This document shows, piece after piece, positions 22,333 through 33,166 of a stretch of DNA of 64,000 nt. The stretch is from Minisyncoccota bacterium. GTDB lineage: Bacteria; Patescibacteriota; Minisyncoccia; Phycocordibacterales; PALSA-1337. The notes under the pieces were generated by a model. The model made no database searches. It had not been told where the DNA came from and saw nothing but the letters and a program-made list of their open reading frames with translations. Position 1 is the first letter of the stretch; each line of letters starts with the position of its first letter. The stretch lies in the NCBI GenBank assembly GCA_017991475.1, contig JAGOQK010000002.1, forward strand, positions 23,673 to 87,672, read 5' to 3'. The position numbers and the translations under genes are program-made.

Positions 22333-25300
22333 ATGATTTTACCCATGAAGAAACCTCAATCGAAAGCGAAGCTGCTCGGCGCATATGACCACAAGAAGGT
22401 AGAAGCAAAGTGGCAGAAGCAGTGGGACAAAACCAAAGCATTCAAAGCTACCGAAGATCCCAAGAAGAAGAAATTCTTTGGCTTGATTGAGTTCCCATAC
22501 CCATCAGGAGATGGTCTCCATGTCGGACATATCCGCTCCAACACAGCCATGGATATCATTGCTCGCAAGAGGCGCCGTGAGGGATACGAGGTGTTGTACC
22601 CAATAGGTTGGGATGCATTCGGTCTGCCAACTGAGAACTACGCTATCAAGACTGGCATCCAGCCTGCCATCGTTACCAAAAAGAACACCGACACATTCCG
22701 TCGCCAGCTCAAGGCACTCGGATTCTCTTTTGATTGGTCACGCGAAATCAACACAACTGATCCGAAGTATTACCGCTGGACACAGTGGATCTTTTTACAG
22801 TTCCTGAAAAAGGGATTGGCATACAAGAAGAAGATGACGATCAACTGGTGTCCCAAGGATCTCATCGGTCTTGCGAACGAAGAGGTGGTCAATGGATGCT
22901 GTGAGCGTTGTGGAACTCCTGTCGAGAAGCGCGACAAGGAGCAGTGGATGCTGGCGATAACAAAGTATGCTGATCGCCTCGACAAGGATCTTGATACGGT
23001 TGATTTTCTCGACAGGATAAAGACACAGCAGAGAAATTGGATAGGGAAGAGTGAAGGAGCGGAGATTAAATTCGAAGTTCGAATATCGAGATCCGAAGCA
23101 AATTCAAAATTAGAAGTACAAATACCTAAAAGGGAGATTACCGTCTTCACGACTCGCCCAGATACCCTCTTTGGTGTGACCTACGTGGTGCTTGCTCCTG
23201 AACATAAGCTCGTGGGTGAATTAATATCCACGATAGAAAATGCTGCAGAAGTTCGTGACTATATTTCAAAGTCCAAGCAGGAGACAGATATCCAAAGAAC
23301 CGACGCCTCAAAAGAAAAGTCAGGCGTGCAACTCAAGGGCATCATGGCCGTCAATCCTGTGAATGGCGAGGAAATCCCAGTCTGGATCTCCGACTATGTG
23401 CTCGCAGACTATGGTACAGGAGCTGTTATGGCTGTTCCTGCACATGATGATCGCGATTTTGAGTTTGCCCAGAAGTACAATCTACCGATCAAGACTGTCA
23501 TCGAGCCTCTCATTGTCAAAGAAGACGGCACTGATGCAGTCAGGAAAGATGCACCCTATGTCGAGCGCAATGCAGCAGTGTGTATCATCAAGCATTGGTC
23601 GGAGGACAAGTATCTCATGTCATTCTACAAAGCCAACGGCTGGAAAGGCTTTGTCGTGGGCGGAATTGAGAATGGTGAGAGCGTCGCAGTTACCGGCACT
23701 CGTGAGATTCATGAGGAGACGGGATACAAAAATGCAAAGTTCGTTCGTGAGGTCGGTACTATTCACTCAAAGTTCTTCCACGCAGTAAAATCTGTGAACA
23801 GGTTCGCTCACTTCAAGGTCGCATATTTCGAACTCTCCGATGGAGATCGTGACGAAATGGCTGAAGAGGAAAAGAAGCTTCATGATGTGGTCTGGCTTTC
23901 TCCCCAAGAAGTCACCACAGCAGTCAATCGCGAAGATATCAAGATCGCTTGGGACTTCTTCAATGGAAAAATTTCATATACAGGAAATGGTCTGCTCACA
24001 AATTCCAACTCATTTGATGGTAAGGATTCAGAATCAGTCAAAAAGGAAATCACCGAGAAGGCGGGTGGCAAGTGGGTTACCACATTCAAGCTCCGTGACT
24101 GGGTGTTCTCTCGCCAGCGTTATTGGGGAGAGCCGATACCAGTCGTACATTGTGATGTATGCGGTGTAGTTCCTGTCCCTGAAAAAGATCTTCCCGTCAA
24201 ACTCCCGAAGGTCAAGAATTATAAGCCGACAGAGACCGGCGAGTCACCACTTGCTGCTATTGAGAAGTGGGTGAATACCACTTGTCCCAATTGTGTCGCG
24301 AATAAGAAGAAACCAAAGTACCTCATCTTCGATTTTGATGGAGTGCTCGGAAACACGTGGACTGAATCAAATGAGGTCAAGGTTGTTATGGGTGATTCGG
24401 CGACTGTAGAGGATGCAGCGGCAGTCACGATGAAACATTTTGATAAGAAGCCATCTACAGAACGCAACCATTCGCTAACGACTGAGCAGTTGCAGAAGAA
24501 GCAAGAATGGATTACTACATTCGGAAAACATCTTTCCGAAACGGATTTTGGTTTGTTCAAAGGCTTTATTGCTGAACTGAAGAAGATCAAGAATGCAAAG
24601 TTTGCAGTCGTCTCATCAGGTTCATCACAGTATGTACTTCCTGCACTCAAAAAATCGGGGATTAAGTTCACACACATTCTTGCCTACGAAGATCACTACT
24701 CGAAGGAGGAAAAGGTAGAAAAAGTCTGTAAGGACTGGGGTATCTCACCGAAGGATGCATATTATTTTACCGATACTAAGGCGGACATTCTTGAGCTTCA
24801 GGATTTGATGGGTCGCGAGCGCATGATTGGATGTGCCTGGGGATGGCATGGATATGAAAAACTAAACGAGCTTCTTCCTGAAAAAATGATCCTTAGGGAA
24901 TTCAAAGACGTTCGCAAAGTCCTCAATCTTGACTGTCTTGCAAAGCGCGAAACAGATACGATGCCAAACTGGGCAGGTTCGAGCTGGTACTATCTCCGCT
25001 ACACAGATCCCAAAAATTCGAAAGAGTTCGCATCAATAGACAATCTCAAGTACTGGACTCCTGTCGACTGGTACAACGGCGGCATGGAGCATACAACTTT
25101 GCACTTGCTCTACTCTCGCTTCTGGCACAAATTCTTGTTCGACCTCGGACTCGTTCCGACCAGTGAGCCGTATCAGAAGAGGACATCTCACGGCCTCATC
25201 CTTGCCGCAGGTGGCGAGAAGATGTCCAAGTCAAAGGGTAATGTCGTGAACCCTGACAGCATCATCGAGACTGTCGGTGCAGATAGTTTGCGCCTGTATG

Positions 25301-25890
25301 AGATGTTCATGGGTCCATTTGATCAGCCGATTGCATGGAATACAGATAATATTGCGGGAGTGCGACGCTTTATTGAGAGAGTGTGGAAGCTCCGTGAGAA
25401 AATTCAGATAGGCACGGCCTCATCTAGGGATGCACAGAAAACCATCCACAAAACGATCAAGAAAGTAACTGAGGATATCGAAGCCATGCGTTTCAATACT
25501 GCAATCAGTTCACTTATGATCGCGCTCAATGAGCTTGAAAAGGTGGAATCGGTGACGGTTGAAAATTTTGAAGCTCTGCTCCAGCTCCTCGCTCCGTTTG
25601 CTCCACACGTCACTGAGGAGCTCTGGGCGTCACTTGGGTACAAGGATTCTATTCATGCATCACCATGGCCCGTATATGACCCTGCACAGGCAGTCGATAG
25701 TGAGGTGACTATCATGATCCAAATCAATGGCAAGACTCGTGGTTCATTTACCGCACCTATCGATACCTCGAAAGAGGAGCTTGAAAAACTCGCCAAGGAT
25801 TCACCGGAAGGAAAAAAGTGGTTGGAAGGTAAGTCCATCTCTAAAGTTATTGTAGTACCGAACAAGTTGGTGAACATTGTAGTCTTATAG
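22333..25890 (+). CDS. leuS: leucyl-tRNA synthetase with two inserted extra domains (Nudix and HAD)
   Basis: HIGH (PYPSGDGLHVGH), the editing region, KMSKS and the C-terminal anticodon-binding region are all present in one 1185-aa frame. An extra Nudix box lies at about 23570-23960 (GGIENGESVAVTGTREIHEETGY). An extra HAD motif-I segment lies at about 24300-24940 (LIFDFDGVLG), between CPNC and AKRETDTM. Confidence 0.9.
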   Translation: MILPMKKPQSKAKLLGAYDHKKVEAKWQKQWDKTKAFKATEDPKKKKFFGLIEFPYPSGDGLHVGHIRSNTAMDIIARKRRREGYEVLYPIGWDAFGLPTENYAIKTGIQPAIVTKKNTDTFRRQLKALGFSFDWSREINTTDPKYYRWTQWIFLQFLKKGLAYKKKMTINWCPKDLIGLANEEVVNGCCERCGTPVEKRDKEQWMLAITKYADRLDKDLDTVDFLDRIKTQQRNWIGKSEGAEIKFEVRISRSEANSKLEVQIPKREITVFTTRPDTLFGVTYVVLAPEHKLVGELISTIENAAEVRDYISKSKQETDIQRTDASKEKSGVQLKGIMAVNPVNGEEIPVWISDYVLADYGTGAVMAVPAHDDRDFEFAQKYNLPIKTVIEPLIVKEDGTDAVRKDAPYVERNAAVCIIKHWSEDKYLMSFYKANGWKGFVVGGIENGESVAVTGTREIHEETGYKNAKFVREVGTIHSKFFHAVKSVNRFAHFKVAYFELSDGDRDEMAEEEKKLHDVVWLSPQEVTTAVNREDIKIAWDFFNGKISYTGNGLLTNSNSFDGKDSESVKKEITEKAGGKWVTTFKLRDWVFSRQRYWGEPIPVVHCDVCGVVPVPEKDLPVKLPKVKNYKPTETGESPLAAIEKWVNTTCPNCVANKKKPKYLIFDFDGVLGNTWTESNEVKVVMGDSATVEDAAAVTMKHFDKKPSTERNHSLTTEQLQKKQEWITTFGKHLSETDFGLFKGFIAELKKIKNAKFAVVSSGSSQYVLPALKKSGIKFTHILAYEDHYSKEEKVEKVCKDWGISPKDAYYFTDTKADILELQDLMGRERMIGCAWGWHGYEKLNELLPEKMILREFKDVRKVLNLDCLAKRETDTMPNWAGSSWYYLRYTDPKNSKEFASIDNLKYWTPVDWYNGGMEHTTLHLLYSRFWHKFLFDLGLVPTSEPYQKRTSHGLILAAGGEKMSKSKGNVVNPDSIIETVGADSLRLYEMFMGPFDQPIAWNTDNIAGVRRFIERVWKLREKIQIGTASSRDAQKTIHKTIKKVTEDIEAMRFNTAISSLMIALNELEKVESVTVENFEALLQLLAPFAPHVTEELWASLGYKDSIHASPWPVYDPAQAVDSEVTIMIQINGKTRGSFTAPIDTSKEELEKLAKDSPEGKKWLEGKSISKVIVVPNKLVNIVVL

Positions 25891-26007
25891 AAACCGAGCG
25901 TGACGACATGTGTGCTCTCACGCTACATCGCAGAACGGTTCGCGAAAGTGTAGTGTACAAATACAACGATGTAGCGTGAGAGCACACATGTCGTCACGCT
26001 CGGTTTC
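25890..26007 (+). repeat. palindromic intergenic element, copy B
   Basis: Perfect 41-bp inverted arms at 25890-25930 and 25967-26007. Core at 25931-25966 is CAGAACGGT-tcgcgaaagtgta-GTGTACAAATACAA. The left arm begins on the last base of the leuS stop codon. Confidence 0.85.
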
Positions 26008-26089
26008 GCTCTATTTGACCAGATTTCCAAGATATGGTAGTATGATTCTATCAAGCCTGGGCATAGGGGATTAGCATATCCCCACAAGA

Positions 26090-27181
26090 TTGACTTTATT
26101 ACAACCAAGTGCTACAAATAGTAGCAATTACTTATCAGCGAATTACATGGCAACTACAACCATTTCGTTCAAGCCCAAGCAAATCGTCAAGAGACTCCTC
26201 GCCTCACTTCCTGACCGTGCCCGTGATGTTATTCTCTATCGTTACGGACTCGGTGCAGACACACGCCGCATGACCCTCGATGGTATCGGCAAGAAGTACA
26301 GCATTACTCGTGAGCGCGTACGCCAAATCGAGAACTACGCTCTCGGAATGATCCGCAAATCAGATGAGTACAAGCTTGAAAAAGCCGTATTCTCTGAAAT
26401 CGAAAACCTCCTTCATGCATTTGGTGGTGTCGTCGTCGAAGATGATTTCCTCGGACATCTCACCAAAGACAAGAGTCTCCAGAACCATATCCATTTCCTC
26501 CTTGTGATCGGCGAACCGTTCACCAAGAAGAAGGAAGACGACGAATTCAGTCATCGCTGGCACGTCAACGAGGCTCTCGCCAACCAGGTCGAGGATGCTC
26601 TTCGCAAGCTCTATGCCAATCTCAACAATCAAGATCTCCTTCCTGAATCAGAGATCATCAACAAGTTCCTCAATCATCTTGAAGGCGTCTCTGAGCGCTA
26701 CAAGAACCAGGAGATTATGAAGCGCTGGCTTGCCCTCTCAAAGTCGATCGGCAAGAATGCCCTCGGCGACTGGGGTACCGCCAAGTCATCAAACATCAAG
26801 ACCAAGGGTATGCGTGATTATGCGTTCCTCGTTATCAGGAAACATGGTTCACCGATACACTTCCGTGATGTTGCAAAACAGATCACCTCTATGTTCAACA
26901 AGAAAGCCCATGTCGCAACGACGCACAATGAGCTCATCAAGGATCCTCGTTTCGTTCTCGTTGGCCGCGGTCTCTATGCTCTCGCTGAGTGGGGATACGC
27001 TCCCGGTATCGTCCGCGATGTCATCCGTCACGTGATCGAGAAGAATGGCCCAATGACCAAGGATGAGATCGTCACCAAAGTCATGAAGGAACGCTATGTG
27101 AAGGAAAACACTATCGCCGTCAATCTTCAGAATCCAAAGTATTTCAAGAAGGACAAGGAAGGTAAATATTCCGCAGCGTAA
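26090..27181 (+). CDS. sigma-70 region-4-like HTH fused to a C-terminal HARE-HTH-like domain
   Basis: Region 4-like segment: ...LPDRARDVILYRYGL...TLDGIGKKYSITRERVRQIENYAL. C-terminal winged-helix resembles the HARE-HTH of RNAP delta/restriction enzymes: DYAFLVIRKHGSPIHFRDVAKQI...KDPRFVLVGRGLYALAEWGY. The likely start is Met at 26147. Confidence 0.55.
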   Translation: MTLLQPSATNSSNYLSANYMATTTISFKPKQIVKRLLASLPDRARDVILYRYGLGADTRRMTLDGIGKKYSITRERVRQIENYALGMIRKSDEYKLEKAVFSEIENLLHAFGGVVVEDDFLGHLTKDKSLQNHIHFLLVIGEPFTKKKEDDEFSHRWHVNEALANQVEDALRKLYANLNNQDLLPESEIINKFLNHLEGVSERYKNQEIMKRWLALSKSIGKNALGDWGTAKSSNIKTKGMRDYAFLVIRKHGSPIHFRDVAKQITSMFNKKAHVATTHNELIKDPRFVLVGRGLYALAEWGYAPGIVRDVIRHVIEKNGPMTKDEIVTKVMKERYVKENTIAVNLQNPKYFKKDKEGKYSAA

Positions 27182-27294
27182 ATAATAGCAAGTTGCTTGG
27201 AAGAAGAGGTTATAATGACCTCTTTTTTCATGCATGAAGATCCTCATTGTTTTGCTGATTTTGGACTTTCCACATTATGTTGTAAACTTAGAGC

Positions 27295-28575
27295 ATGCCA
27301 CTCGAACAGTACTTCCCGGTGCTCGTCAAAGAGTTCCAGGGTATCATTCTTCCGCAATCAATACAGTTCGCCATCACGATAGCCCCTATCGTGCTGTGCA
27401 TCATTCTTGCAACGATCATGTGGCCTCTCTGGGTGCGCTATGTCCGTGCCAAGTTCTTCCTGTCACTCAAATACACGGTACTGGAAATATCACTCCCGAA
27501 GGACACATTCAAATCGCCCCTTGCAATGGAGGTCTTCCTCCAGTCGCTCCACAATACTTCGAACGGAAGCCACTTCGCACAATTCTGGAAAGGGGAGATG
27601 AGGCCATGGTATTCACTCGAGGTTGTCTCGATCGAAGGCCGCATCAAGTTTTTCGTCTGGACAGAGGATCGCCGTAAGGCAGGTGTCATCAATGGTCTGT
27701 ACTCACAATTCCCAGGGATTGAGGTCAAAGAAGTTGAGGATTACACCAAGTCAGTGCATTTCGATCCAGACACCATGAAGGTATGGGCAGCAGAAATGAA
27801 ATTTACTAAAGATGACGCGTACCCGATAAAATCCTATGTCGACTATGGTCTCGACAAAGATCCGAAGGAAGAATTTAAAGTTGATCCCATGCTCCCGATG
27901 CTCGAATTCCTCGGCAGCGTCGGCCCCAATCAGCAGGTATGGATACAAATACTCATTCAGGCACATATTCCCGATAAGCGTAAACCCGGACACTGGTTCA
28001 AAAAGGTGGATAGCTACCAGGAAGGAGCCAAGAAGCTCGTCAACGATATCATGATCCGCGACTCCAAGACCAAAGGTATCAAGGCTGAGAATAAGAAAAG
28101 TGGGGAAGTATTTCCTGACATACCACGCCTCTCAAAAGGTGAGCAAGATGTTGCTGAAGCGATCGAGCGCAGTGTCTCCAAACTTTCTTTTGATACCGGT
28201 ATCCGTGGTATATACATGGGCAGCAAGGAATCATTCAATACTATCTTTGGTGTTGGTGGTATCCTCGGAAGCTTCAAGCATTTCAACACAGAGCACCTCA
28301 ATGGATTCAAGCCTAACGGCGATGTATGGCATCCACGCCTCGGAGATCCGTGGAAAGACTACAAAGATATCCGCAGGAATAGGTACGCGGCCGACGCTAT
28401 CGCGATGTACAAACGTCGCTCATATCACTATGCACCTCACGAAGGGAAGCCGCTTGTCATGAGCACCGAGGAGCTCGCTACGGTCTACCACTTCCCAGGA
28501 TCTGTTGCTGCAACCCCTACACTCCAGCGCATACCATCCAAGAAAGCCGAAGCTCCATCCAATCTTCCTCTCTAG
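27295..28575 (+). CDS. large membrane-anchored hypothetical protein
   Basis: One N-terminal TM helix (ITIAPIVLCIILATIMWPLWV) then about 380 aa of soluble domain with no recognised motif. Confidence 0.4.
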   Translation: MPLEQYFPVLVKEFQGIILPQSIQFAITIAPIVLCIILATIMWPLWVRYVRAKFFLSLKYTVLEISLPKDTFKSPLAMEVFLQSLHNTSNGSHFAQFWKGEMRPWYSLEVVSIEGRIKFFVWTEDRRKAGVINGLYSQFPGIEVKEVEDYTKSVHFDPDTMKVWAAEMKFTKDDAYPIKSYVDYGLDKDPKEEFKVDPMLPMLEFLGSVGPNQQVWIQILIQAHIPDKRKPGHWFKKVDSYQEGAKKLVNDIMIRDSKTKGIKAENKKSGEVFPDIPRLSKGEQDVAEAIERSVSKLSFDTGIRGIYMGSKESFNTIFGVGGILGSFKHFNTEHLNGFKPNGDVWHPRLGDPWKDYKDIRRNRYAADAIAMYKRRSYHYAPHEGKPLVMSTEELATVYHFPGSVAATPTLQRIPSKKAEAPSNLPL

Positions 28576-28578
28576 TCT

Positions 28579-29604
28579 ATGTCTGCTCTCAATTTCAGAA
28601 TCATACCGGATACCCGGCGCTCGCCCAGCCTGTACACCAGGATCAAGAGGGTCCTCCGTGGAAGCAAGATGGCTATCGGCGCATTCTTCATTGTATTGAT
28701 AGCGGTATCGCTGTTCGGTATAGCCAAATCACTAGCGCCGAGCGACTTCTCTCGCGGCACGATCGTCCGTATCAAGGACGGCATGACGGTATCAGAAACG
28801 GCATCGTTGCTCGCGGAAAAGAATATCATCCGGTCTCAATTTATGTACAAAGCATATGTACGCCTGGTACATAGCAGCAATGGTGTCCGTGCCGGCAGCT
28901 ATCTGTTCGACAACCCTCAGTCAGCACTGCGGGTGGCGTATAGGACTGCATATGGCGTCGATGAACTACAGAAGATCAAAGTTGCGATACCCGAGGGTTC
29001 GAGCTCAGTGAATATTGCGCGGATTATTAAAAAGGCGATACCGGCATTTGATGACAAAGCATTCCTGGCTGAAGCGCGGGTGCATGAAGGATATTTATTC
29101 CCTGAAACATACTTTTTTAATCCTGATGTGACTCCAAAGGAAGTGATCTCTGAAATGAAGAGTCAATTCAATGAGAAGGTGGCGACACTGATGGACGCTA
29201 TTGCAACATCTACTCATTCCCTGAATAACATCATCATTCTTGCGTCCATCCTCGAAGAGGAGGCGAACAATACCGTCGACCGGCGCTTGATTTCAGGAGT
29301 GCTCTGGAATCGCACTGATATAGGCATGGCGCTCCAAGTCGATGCACCGTTCTATTATCTCTTTGGTAAAACATCGAGCCAGCTGACTCTGGCTGACCTC
29401 GCGACCACATCACCCTATAACACCTACAAAAATAAGGGGCTTCCACCTGGTGCGATATCCAATCCTGGCCTCGACTCCATCAAGGCCGCGCTTTATCCGA
29501 CACCCTCGAAGTATCTGTTTTATCTTGCTGATTCGAAGGGGGTGACGCACTATGCGGTCACACATGAGCAGCATGTTGAGAATAAGTTCAAGTATTTGCA
29601 ATAA
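28579..29604 (+). CDS. mltG: endolytic murein transglycosylase MltG (YceG family)
   Basis: TM anchor. YceG motifs: GYLFPETY, ASILEEE and a SPYNTYKNKGLPPGAISNPG-type C-terminus. Confidence 0.8.
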   Translation: MSALNFRIIPDTRRSPSLYTRIKRVLRGSKMAIGAFFIVLIAVSLFGIAKSLAPSDFSRGTIVRIKDGMTVSETASLLAEKNIIRSQFMYKAYVRLVHSSNGVRAGSYLFDNPQSALRVAYRTAYGVDELQKIKVAIPEGSSSVNIARIIKKAIPAFDDKAFLAEARVHEGYLFPETYFFNPDVTPKEVISEMKSQFNEKVATLMDAIATSTHSLNNIIILASILEEEANNTVDRRLISGVLWNRTDIGMALQVDAPFYYLFGKTSSQLTLADLATTSPYNTYKNKGLPPGAISNPGLDSIKAALYPTPSKYLFYLADSKGVTHYAVTHEQHVENKFKYLQ

Positions 29605-29726: not shown

Positions 29727-30122
29727 CTACGCGGCTACAGGTAACGGACATATGATTCCCCGGTCACGAAGCATTATCATGAGGTCGCTTTTGAATACCG
29801 TCAGCGCTCCAGTTTCCTGAACCTGAAGAACCAGATTGGGTGCGCTGATGGCGAGCGATGATGACCAAATAACAAGCGGAAGGGGACTAAGCTTCTGTGC
29901 GTGCTGAGCAACAGTCAGACCATCTCCCCCGCGTCCCATTTGATGGTCAGTAATGATTAGATCAAACTGCTCAGTACTCATCAGTCCAATGGCCTCTGGA
30001 GCATTTTTTGCTTCCATGACAGTGTGACCCACTAGTTCCAGATTCATCCGAATCATTTCAATCATTTCGGGTAGATCATCAACCACAAGTATTTTCATTT
30101 TCATAGGTACTATTTCCTTCAA
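29727..30122 (-). CDS. stand-alone response-regulator receiver domain (CheY-like)
   Basis: KILVVDD...LIITDHQM...receiver signature. No output domain. No histidine kinase in the window. Confidence 0.7.
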   Translation of the reverse strand: MKEIVPMKMKILVVDDLPEMIEMIRMNLELVGHTVMEAKNAPEAIGLMSTEQFDLIITDHQMGRGGDGLTVAQHAQKLSPLPLVIWSSSLAISAPNLVLQVQETGALTVFKSDLMIMLRDRGIICPLPVAA

Positions 30123-32317: not shown

Positions 32318-33166
32318 ATGAATCACCTCATCACCATCACCAAATCTGACGGAACGCAGCAACTTTTTGAAGAAGAGAAGCTCATCAACTCACTTAAACA
32401 CGCAGGTGCCAATGATCAGGCCATCGACGACATACTCGAAACCGTCGAGGCGCATATGAAGGATGGTATGACTACTAATGAGATCTACAGTCATGCCTTC
32501 TCATTGCTGCGCAAACAATCATTCCATACTGCGGTGAAATATTCGGTTCGACGCGCGCTCGCCGAGCTCGGCCCTGATGGATTCCCATTCGAGCGGTTTG
32601 TGTCGCGCATATTCCATGCATGGGGATATGAGACGCTCACTGACCAGCAGGTGATGGGTGCTTGCATCGAGCACGAAATGGATGTGGTCGCCTGGAAAGG
32701 CAAGTCTCTCGCTATGGTCGAGGCCAAGTTCCACAATGAGTTTGGTCTCAAGTCGGATGTGAAAGTCGCTCTCTATGTGAAGGCGCGCTTCGACGATATC
32801 GCTCTCAACGAGTTTGATTATGGAGGAGTACGTCGTAAGCTCACTGAACGCTGGCTCTTCACCAATACCAAGTTTACTGACCAGGCTGTGAAGTATGGTG
32901 CCTGCAATGATCTCAAGCTGATTGGTTGGAACTATCCATCAACTGGAAATCTTCATTCACTTATAGAACAGTTCAGTCTACACCCCATCACCTGCGTAAC
33001 CTCACTCAATCATCAGCAGAAGAAAGATCTCATCGGAAGGAATATCATCACCTGCGCGGATCTCGTCAAAAGGCCTGAAATATTGAAGGATATTGGGGTG
33101 AGGGTGGAGGGTGATGCGCAGAGAGCTGTCGAGGAGGCGAAGTTGATCATGGGGAGTGGGAGGTAA
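32318..33166 (+). CDS. ATP-cone domain fused to a restriction-endonuclease-like (Mrr-cat/PD-(D/E)xK) domain
   Basis: N-terminal ITKSDGTQQLFEEEKLINSL resembles the NrdR/RNR ATP cone. The central ...DVVAWKGKSLAMVEAKFHNE... has a D...E.K nuclease-like motif. Confidence 0.55.
   Translation: MNHLITITKSDGTQQLFEEEKLINSLKHAGANDQAIDDILETVEAHMKDGMTTNEIYSHAFSLLRKQSFHTAVKYSVRRALAELGPDGFPFERFVSRIFHAWGYETLTDQQVMGACIEHEMDVVAWKGKSLAMVEAKFHNEFGLKSDVKVALYVKARFDDIALNEFDYGGVRRKLTERWLFTNTKFTDQAVKYGACNDLKLIGWNYPSTGNLHSLIEQFSLHPITCVTSLNHQQKKDLIGRNIITCADLVKRPEILKDIGVRVEGDAQRAVEEAKLIMGSGR

Follow-up and report, generated by a model that had tools for sequence, protein, structure and literature searches.

We analyzed a stretch of 64,000 nucleotides (nt) from a Minisyncoccota bacterium (contig JAGOQK010000002.1). 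The whole stretch is called the window here, and all coordinates are numbered within it. It contains an open reading frame (ORF1) whose product joins a domain closely resembling region 4 of sigma-70 (sigma-4) to a row of winged helices, followed by a gene for a membrane-anchored protein of the family DUF8128 (ORF2). With a probability of about 0.4, we propose that ORF1 recognizes or loads DNA for a split, membrane-anchored motor that resembles coupling proteins. The direct observations behind this proposal are the domain anatomy of ORF1, the conservation of its contact residues, the conserved gene pair, the link of this pair to an ATPase and the gene fusions. Statements on function are drawn from sequence, predicted structure and gene context. 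The features of the two genes are as follows.

26147–27181, plus strand: ORF1, 344 amino acids (aa), sigma-4 and four tandem winged helices (WH1 to WH4).
26168–26368, plus strand: sigma-70 region 4 domain, aa 8–74, from Pfam, matches to SigA region 4 in the Protein Data Bank (PDB) and the fold match.
26372–26794, plus strand: predicted winged helices WH1 and WH2, aa 76–141 and 142–216, from the secondary structure of the AlphaFold2 model, variable columns and hhalign.
26795–27004, plus strand: WH3, the HARE-HTH domain (HTH, helix-turn-helix), aa 217–286, from Pfam (33.9 bits) and invariant columns.
27005–27178, plus strand: predicted WH4, aa 287–344, related to the HARE-HTH repeat, from the AlphaFold2 model and hhalign.
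27295–28575, plus strand: ORF2, DUF8128 protein of 426 aa, with one predicted N-terminal transmembrane helix and a predicted cytoplasmic alpha/beta domain with a fold like that of the VirB4 N-terminal domain.
27352–27435, plus strand: predicted transmembrane segment of ORF2, about aa 20–47, a single hydrophobic segment in the hydropathy analysis.
28516–28572, plus strand: disordered C-terminal tail of ORF2, ...R-x-P-S-K-K-x-E-A-P-x-N-L-P, with invariant columns from P408 to P425 and a predicted local distance difference test score (pLDDT) below 50.

An in-frame TTG at 26090 is a possible alternative start of ORF1. The NCBI copy of the protein, identical over 344 aa, is KBC33_01235, a hypothetical protein from a metagenome-assembled genome of Candidatus Pacebacteria. 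NCBI names the family 'sigma factor-like helix-turn-helix DNA-binding protein', and the Joint Genome Institute (JGI) sometimes uses 'delta subunit'. The earlier note on this stretch had described ORF1 as a fusion of sigma-70 region 4 with a HARE-HTH-like winged helix, lacking regions 2 and 3. Both domain assignments and the lack of regions 2 and 3 hold, far beyond chance. In hidden Markov model searches against Pfam, aa 17–71 match Sigma70_r4 (PF04545) with E 5.7e-14 and 51.8 bits (threshold 24.1), and no match to Sigma70_r2 or Sigma70_r3 is found even at E<=1. The sigma models of NCBIfam reach ORF1 solely through their region 4, with scores far under their cutoffs. The HARE-HTH domain (PF05066) was located at aa 222–282 (E 4.2e-8, 33.9 bits, gathering threshold 25.9), and it is precomputed on nearly all ORF1 homologues. 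Both domains are thus above the Pfam thresholds, but the architecture is not that of a two-domain protein.

An AlphaFold2 monomer model, calculated with 50 homologues as input, has a mean pLDDT of 90. It consists of the sigma-4 helices (aa 10–71) and helix/strand modules at approximately aa 79–139, 142–211, 222–279 and 289–343. The N-terminus superposes on solved SigA region 4 structures with a root-mean-square deviation (rmsd) of 0.8–1.5 Å. Over the whole chain, the model is best matched in the PDB by proteins with winged helices in tandem, namely UFL1/DDRGK1, the C-terminal portion of SelB, Dcc1 and RPC62. Comparison by hhalign of the modules, cut from a 47-member alignment, indicates that the winged helices are related to one another (WH1 with WH2, 71%; WH2 with WH4, 86%; WH3 with WH4, 76%). 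WH3 carries the invariant motif H-F ... T-x-H-N-E-L-I ... L-x-G-R-G-x-Y, and WH4 has weak Pfam matches to DUF3320, DUF7669 and DUF4777. From the modeled modules and their profile similarity, ORF1 is therefore sigma-4 followed by four HARE-type winged helices, with the HARE-HTH as the third of them. The modules fall into two types. Sigma-4, WH3 and WH4 are strongly conserved and basic (isoelectric points, pI, of 10.3, 10.2 and 9.6); WH1 and WH2 vary in sequence and range from acidic to neutral (5.8 and 6.9). The whole protein has a pI of 9.6 and no acidic tail.

The sigma-4 domain is nearest to region 4 of the housekeeping sigma factors (RpoD/SigA type), both in NCBIfam and in the PDB, with about 43% identity to region 4 of E. 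coli. Residues R24, R32, L44, T54, R55, E56, R57, R59 and Q60 align with R554, R562, L573, T583, R584, E585, R586, R588 and Q589 of E. coli sigma-70, which are established, by genetics and by the structure of Taq sigma-4 with −35 DNA, as the residues that contact the −35 element. Eight of these nine residues (all but R24) are invariant in 47 members that are 32–54% identical to the window protein. At the position of R24, most of the 47 have the arginine, and it is invariant in 50 closer members. In the recognition helix (ITRERVRQIE), T54, R55, E56, R57, R59 and Q60 are all invariant across the 47 diverse members. The basic patch of sigma-70 that contacts activators (K593, R596 and K597) is not kept, and ORF1 has Y64, G67 and M68 at these positions. 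ORF1 therefore shares with the housekeeping sigma factors the fold of region 4 (rmsd about 1 Å) and the contacts corresponding to R584, E585, R586, R588 and Q589, and differs from them in the loss of the activator patch, in the four added winged helices and in having no regions 1.2, 2 or 3. As these regions are absent, ORF1 cannot be a sigma factor. A split sigma factor that obtains its region 4 from ORF1 in trans was also rejected, because the RpoD proteins of the Candidate Phyla Radiation (CPR) keep their own region 4 (for example in L052 and L047).

The family is large and has a narrow distribution. Among 1.84 billion cluster representatives searched, it forms 584 clusters at 50% identity (E<=1e-30), nearly all of 330–390 aa and matched end to end; the word-indexed homologue searches covered the best 8,000 scored candidates. 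The specificity for the lineage that the earlier note had supposed is borne out at the level of the CPR, as the named members among the matches listed all belong to the CPR/Patescibacteria (Paceibacterota, Parcubacteria, Kaiserbacteria, Taylorbacteria, Campbellbacteria, Doudnabacteria, Falkowbacteria and Peregrinibacteria). A phage or plasmid origin was rejected. Phage genomes gave no match, one locus was found in 2.9 million viral contigs, and the plasmid search gave one match, leading to a homologue from Abditibacteriota. In the window's lineage, ORF1 is 80% identical to its counterpart in L001, compared with 61% for the leucyl-tRNA synthetase (LeuRS), 60% for MnmA and 58% for DUF8128. Elsewhere in the CPR, its rate of evolution exceeds that of the ATPase and of SecF (mean p-distance 0.60, vs 0.41 and 0.52).

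The homologue from outside the CPR is BCM94557.1 (annotated 'RpoD', 568 aa), encoded on the Abditibacteriota plasmid pIAD-21 (AP024153.1, 86.5–102.9 kb; L166 / L167). Its residues 226–565 align to the full profile of sigma-4 and four winged helices (hhalign 99.6%, E 1.3e-23). It differs from ORF1 in a 225-aa N-terminal extension. The locus differs too, in that BCM94557.1 heads a BREX-like operon without DUF8128 or a coupling-protein ATPase. The genes that follow it encode an MmeI/Eco57I-type methylase, a DUF4007 protein, a small AAA protein, two large proteins without a Pfam match and BrxL.

Gene-neighborhood conservation, one of the checks suggested in the earlier note, links ORF1 to a membrane-anchored ATPase module of the VirB4/VirD4 type rather than to transcription genes. 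The membrane protein downstream, which had been taken for an unrelated unknown, is a conserved partner. DUF8128 lies immediately downstream of ORF1 in 17 of 18 loci from species-representative genomes, including loci with 30–38% ORF1 identity in which the other neighbors (LeuRS, MltG and MnmA) are all different. We also retrieved 80 metagenome loci with the HARE/WH4 part as the sole query, avoiding matches to RpoD. Of these, 57 extend far enough to judge, and DUF8128 follows ORF1 in 54 of the 57, at a distance of no more than 700 nt in 50. The two genes are on the same strand, with a median gap of 71 nt as a lower bound. In lineages other than that of the window, the genes are usually arranged as SecD, SecF, ORF1, DUF8128 and an ATPase of about 600 aa. 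The ATPase follows DUF8128 in 38 of 40 such loci, and SecF adjoins ORF1 upstream in 31 of 50.

The ATPase matches TrwB_AAD_bind (35–54 bits, threshold 20.5), TraG-D_C, DUF87 and T4SS-DNA_transf in Pfam, and the solved structures nearest to it are TrwB and DotL. It scores far below the cutoffs of the coupling-protein models in NCBIfam. The Walker A motif (GKTGMGKT) is located at about residue 40, there is often a zinc ribbon (CxxC-x17-CxxC), and the protein has no transmembrane segment of its own. It is unlikely to be a replacement for FtsK; FtsK_SpoIIIE is absent from its Pfam matches, and FtsK is mentioned in the TM7x literature. In three loci DUF8128 and the ATPase are fused end to end as single ORFs of 964–993 aa (L120:2345-5302, L157:1698-4676 and L160:8391-11282), with the PPxNLP motif approximately 12 residues ahead of the ATPase N-terminus. 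The fused proteins are 43–54% identical to one another, and the fusion is thus an established feature of a lineage and not an assembly artefact.

Two unusual arrangements were also seen. In L168:6001-7980 (P0272) a gene call of 659 aa joins SecF to the sigma-4/HARE protein, and DUF8128 and the ATPase follow. This is a single case on a contig with 3.6x coverage, so that a lost stop codon is possible. In L101:8400-10957 two successive DUF8128 ORFs lie between the sigma-4/HARE gene and the ATPase.

The earlier note had described ORF2 as a 426-aa membrane-anchored protein with no recognizable domain. The membrane segment stands, and older versions of Pfam and NCBIfam indeed gave no match. However, homologues with 58–96% identity carry PF26449 (PF26449.1, DUF8128) in precomputed tables, and therefore the description is true of the older libraries only. 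A profile of distant DUF8128 members matches ORF2 at 4e-148. Basic residues (R48, R51, K53 and K59) follow the transmembrane helix, so that by the positive-inside rule the large domain should be cytoplasmic. The AlphaFold2 model of ORF2 has a pLDDT of 74, and its sole significant matches in the PDB are VirB4/TrwK chains (top 10: probability 0.94–1.0, E 2e-4 to 6e-3, template-modeling (TM) score about 0.35). The fusions, the downstream ATPase and the VirB4 fold indicate that DUF8128 forms the N-terminal, membrane-bound half of an ATPase similar to VirB4/VirD4 and peculiar to the CPR, and that ORF2 in the window is this half alone. The motif in the tail of ORF2 is kept down to 22% identity, and the tail is a candidate docking peptide. 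In the lineages of L012, L013 and L064 the tail motif SKKxxxPPxNLP is repeated at the extreme C-terminus of DUF8128.

An extracytoplasmic function (ECF) sigma/anti-sigma pair, named in the earlier note as something that might explain the architecture, does not account for it. ORF1 has no region 2 and ORF2 has no anti-sigma match. The predicted topology of ORF2 is also the reverse of an anti-sigma factor, with the large domain following the transmembrane helix, and its fold matches VirB4.

In the mechanism that we propose, ORF1 would be a cytoplasmic protein, specific to the CPR, that binds double-stranded DNA. It would read DNA through sigma-4, with its −35-type surface, and through the two basic HARE-type winged helices WH3 and WH4; the retained contact residues and the basic character of these modules point to such binding. 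WH1 and WH2 may act as a spacer or as a partner-binding region. ORF1 would cooperate with DUF8128, as the membrane-anchored N-terminal half of a VirB4/VirD4-type P-loop ATPase of the FtsK–HerA superfamily, whose ATPase half is encoded directly downstream or fused to it in most CPR lineages. It may recognize or load DNA for this motor, as TrwA and TraM do for coupling proteins and the gamma domain does for FtsK. The binding of DNA itself, the contact of ORF1 with DUF8128 or the ATPase and the cargo of the motor are inferred. This proposal explains the near-obligate adjacency of ORF1 and DUF8128, the ATPase link and the fusions, the cytoplasmic placement of DUF8128 and the build of ORF1 from several DNA-binding modules.

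Several elements around the two genes have to be considered when this proposal is weighed.

26015–26043, plus strand: sigma-70-type promoter-like site before ORF1 (TTGACC, 17-nt spacer, TAGTAT, TG extended −10), from a consensus scan.
27194–27234, plus strand: hairpin with a trailing run of T in the gap from ORF1 to ORF2, folding as RNA at −22.1 kcal/mol (z = −3.98).
28579–29604, plus strand: YceG/MltG (ORF3), 233.6 bits in Pfam, located after DUF8128 in the window and in 9 of 9 Paceibacteria-type relatives examined.

The last of these agrees with the earlier note, which had placed mltG next. The region scanned has five promoter-like sites where 4.7 would be expected, which leaves the site before ORF1, on its own, as a consensus match only. 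The hairpin resembles an intrinsic terminator or an attenuator and was not listed by a simple terminator scan.

A number of points weigh against a DNA partner of a motor. Throughout the window's own lineage, represented by the window and nine related Paceibacteria-type loci, ORF1 is followed by DUF8128 and then by MltG. No ATPase was found in the flanks of these ten loci or within the 64-kb window, and outward extension through Logan contigs gained approximately 10 kb, again with no ATPase in it. In the window, the terminator-like hairpin lies between the two genes. A transcription factor that binds promoters would equally be expected to keep an intact −35-type recognition helix, and the homologue outside the CPR heads a BREX-like operon, a frequent place of regulators. 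In small CPR genomes a constant gene order can reflect inherited operon structure and not protein contact. The similarity of DUF8128 to VirB4 lies at the level of the fold only (TM about 0.35), and profile comparison of DUF8128 with TrsD and TrsE of pSK41 gave no sequence link. The co-variation of ORF1 and DUF8128 is suggestive of a link between the two. The correlation of their distance matrices is the highest of the pairs tested (r = 0.89; partial r with SecF controlled, 0.69), and the correlation of ORF1 with SecF is largely gone when DUF8128 is controlled (partial r 0.27), but this signal comes from 19 complete loci and uncorrected distances. The intact −35-type head and the missing ATPase in the window's lineage are left unexplained by the motor proposal. 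Because of these two points, we regard a transcription regulator and a polymerase factor as serious rivals.

The first rival is rather unlikely but has to be taken seriously. ORF1 would be a conventional transcription regulator that binds −35-like hexamers through sigma-4, represses or activates the operon of DUF8128 and the ATPase, and perhaps other promoters, and makes no contact with the motor. This would fit the invariant −35-contact residues and the position of ORF1, which without exception is the gene immediately preceding the module. The promoter-like site of its own and the hairpin behind it in the window are also in keeping with a regulator, as is the Abditibacteriota homologue as the first gene of its operon. 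However, in the window's lineage ORF1 is better conserved (80%) than LeuRS (61%), MnmA (60%) and DUF8128 (58%), which is unusual for a local regulator. Five modules for binding DNA or protein exceed the needs of an operator repressor, and the distances of ORF1 follow those of DUF8128 more closely than those of SecF.

The second rival, which is close to the view of the earlier note, appears still more doubtful. ORF1 would be a general accessory factor of the CPR RNA polymerase, with sigma-4 on the beta flap and/or the −35 element, and with the HARE-HTH on the polymerase like the N-terminal domain of delta; the adjacency to DUF8128 would simply be inherited. Both recognizable domains are known from proteins bound to polymerase, sigma-4 is closest to region 4 of RpoD/SigA, and the family is strongly conserved and widespread. 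The HARE-HTH matches the low-GC delta model (E 1.8e-6), and JGI labels relatives as delta subunit. The Firmicutes delta subunit (RpoE) does have a HARE-HTH winged helix in common with ORF1. In delta, however, this domain is N-terminal and is followed by a polyanionic C-terminal tail; in ORF1 it is the fourth of five modules and is basic. An assignment as the delta subunit itself (TIGR04567) was rejected, as the score is 28.1 bits against a cutoff of 42, the HARE-HTH is not N-terminal and there is no acidic tail in this basic protein (pI 9.6). The conserved neighbors are DUF8128 and the ATPase, with no transcription gene among them. The activator patch (K593, R596 and K597) is replaced by Y64, G67 and M68, and a normal region 4 is retained in the RpoD of CPR genomes (e.g. 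L052).

A defence or 'DNA capture' module, in which ORF1, by way of its HARE-HTH, would detect DNA that is foreign or carries a different modification and pass it on to a pump of the HerA/FtsK type, is very improbable because the context is a fixed housekeeping one (SecDF, or LeuRS/MltG/MnmA) with the same order across distant CPR classes, and further because no nuclease or methylase lies near the module, PADLOC finds in ORF1 and ORF2 only a match of sigma-4 to MzaA, and the family is almost absent from viral contigs, even though the HARE-HTH has been proposed to discriminate modified DNA, pumps of this type recur with winged-helix scanners in Dnd and BREX-related capture systems, the ATPase matches PADLOC mad8 (1.9e-15) and the homologue outside the CPR is in a BREX-like locus.

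If ORF1 is the DNA partner of a motor, it has likenesses among known systems. As with TrwA/TrwB and TraM/TraD, a small DNA-binding protein is encoded directly upstream of a VirD4/TrwB-type ATPase, and the ATPase of the CPR module carries a TraG-D_C ('TraM recognition') region. Both TrwA and TraM have the ribbon-helix-helix fold and are not homologous to ORF1. With its fold of sigma-4 and winged helices, ORF1 is therefore not a member of this type. The resemblance is in the proposed working mode and not in the family, and for the CPR module neither a relaxase nor an oriT is known (PMC12102498). FtsK gamma, DndH variants and BrxA/DUF4007 share with ORF1 the theme of HTH or winged-HTH DNA readers coupled to motors of the FtsK–HerA superfamily. 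These readers are fused domains or components of defence systems, whereas ORF1 is a protein of its own that is inherited vertically and lies among housekeeping genes. DUF8128 and its partner ATPase recreate the layout of N-terminal domain and P-loop ATPase known from VirB4 (TrwK) and VirD4/TrwB. TrwB has a short two-helix anchor. DUF8128, in contrast, has a single helix with a cytoplasmic domain of approximately 380 aa, and its gene is often split from that of the ATPase. The ATPase differs from VirD4/TrwB in that its anchor comes from DUF8128, in trans or by fusion. No other genes of type IV secretion systems adjoin the CPR module.

The domains and their fusion are already catalogued in databases. 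The abstract of Aravind and Iyer on HARE-HTH (2012) reportedly speaks of bacterial proteins that combine features of the alpha subunit and of sigma factors. Our literature search turned up no work on this family, on DUF8128 or on HARE-HTH in Patescibacteria, and none that uses the NCBI product name for such a protein. Apparently undescribed so far are the anatomy of five modules and the conserved association with DUF8128 and with an orphan ATPase similar to coupling proteins. Modules that 'scan' DNA, made of a sigma-related HTH and multiple winged helices, are attached to HerA/FtsK pumps in Dnd and BREX-related defence systems (PMC10853773, PMC12839542). In a 2025 survey, 5,713 homologues of VirD4-type coupling proteins were found in 2,918 of 3,035 Patescibacteria genomes, and only 148 of them are near virB4 (PMC12102498). 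The systems of Patescibacteria are mostly without a relaxase, and it was suggested that the coupling proteins there were 'exapted for other functions' (PMC12102498).

The surroundings of the two genes have some further features. A perfect inverted repeat of 41 nt (25890–26007; arms 25890–25930 and 25967–26007, spacer 36 nt) extends from the last base of the LeuRS stop codon to 8 nt before the promoter-like site of ORF1. Its RNA fold has an energy of −87.8 kcal/mol (z = −13.7), and it is unique in the window. It was rejected as a conserved operator of ORF1, as it is not kept upstream of ORF1 in relatives. The LeuRS of the window (22333–25890) has 1185 aa and is approximately 300–390 aa longer than its relatives (877 aa in L001, 793 aa in L084). 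Its insertions, a NUDIX domain (aa 432–530) and a HAD hydrolase domain (aa 662–822), separate the editing domain from the second half of the catalytic core. Between MltG and MnmA, on the opposite strand (29727–30122, minus), there is an ORF of 131 aa with a response-regulator receiver domain only. Among called genes there is none at this place in L001, L002, L083 and L084. At 32318–33166 a protein combines an ATP-cone with an Mrr-type restriction-endonuclease fold. In the Paceibacteria-type loci L001, L006 and L084 such a protein is encoded again, a few genes beyond the module.

Patescibacteria make up a large share of bacterial diversity, and a role is known for very few of the conserved proteins that are specific to them. 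Their orphan coupling-protein ATPase now gains two fixed partners, the membrane-anchored DUF8128 with its VirB4-like fold and a predicted DNA reader that reuses the −35-recognition module of the housekeeping sigma factor. ORF1 also clearly illustrates how a domain of sigma factors can find use in a protein of another kind. In a wider proposal, which we consider speculative and on balance doubtful, ORF1, DUF8128 and the ATPase would be a vertically inherited chromosomal DNA-translocation machine across the CPR, exapted from the conjugation systems of monoderm bacteria. Promoter-like −35 hexamers, read by sigma-4, would tell the membrane-anchored motor where to load or how to orient itself, and the machine would function in DNA uptake, chromosome handling or the exchange of DNA with the host of these ultrasmall epibionts. 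If true, this would account for the 'orphan' coupling proteins in about 96% of Patescibacteria genomes. The question can now be approached experimentally, through the binding of ORF1 to TTGACA-like DNA, its docking on DUF8128 or the ATPase and the cargo of the motor.

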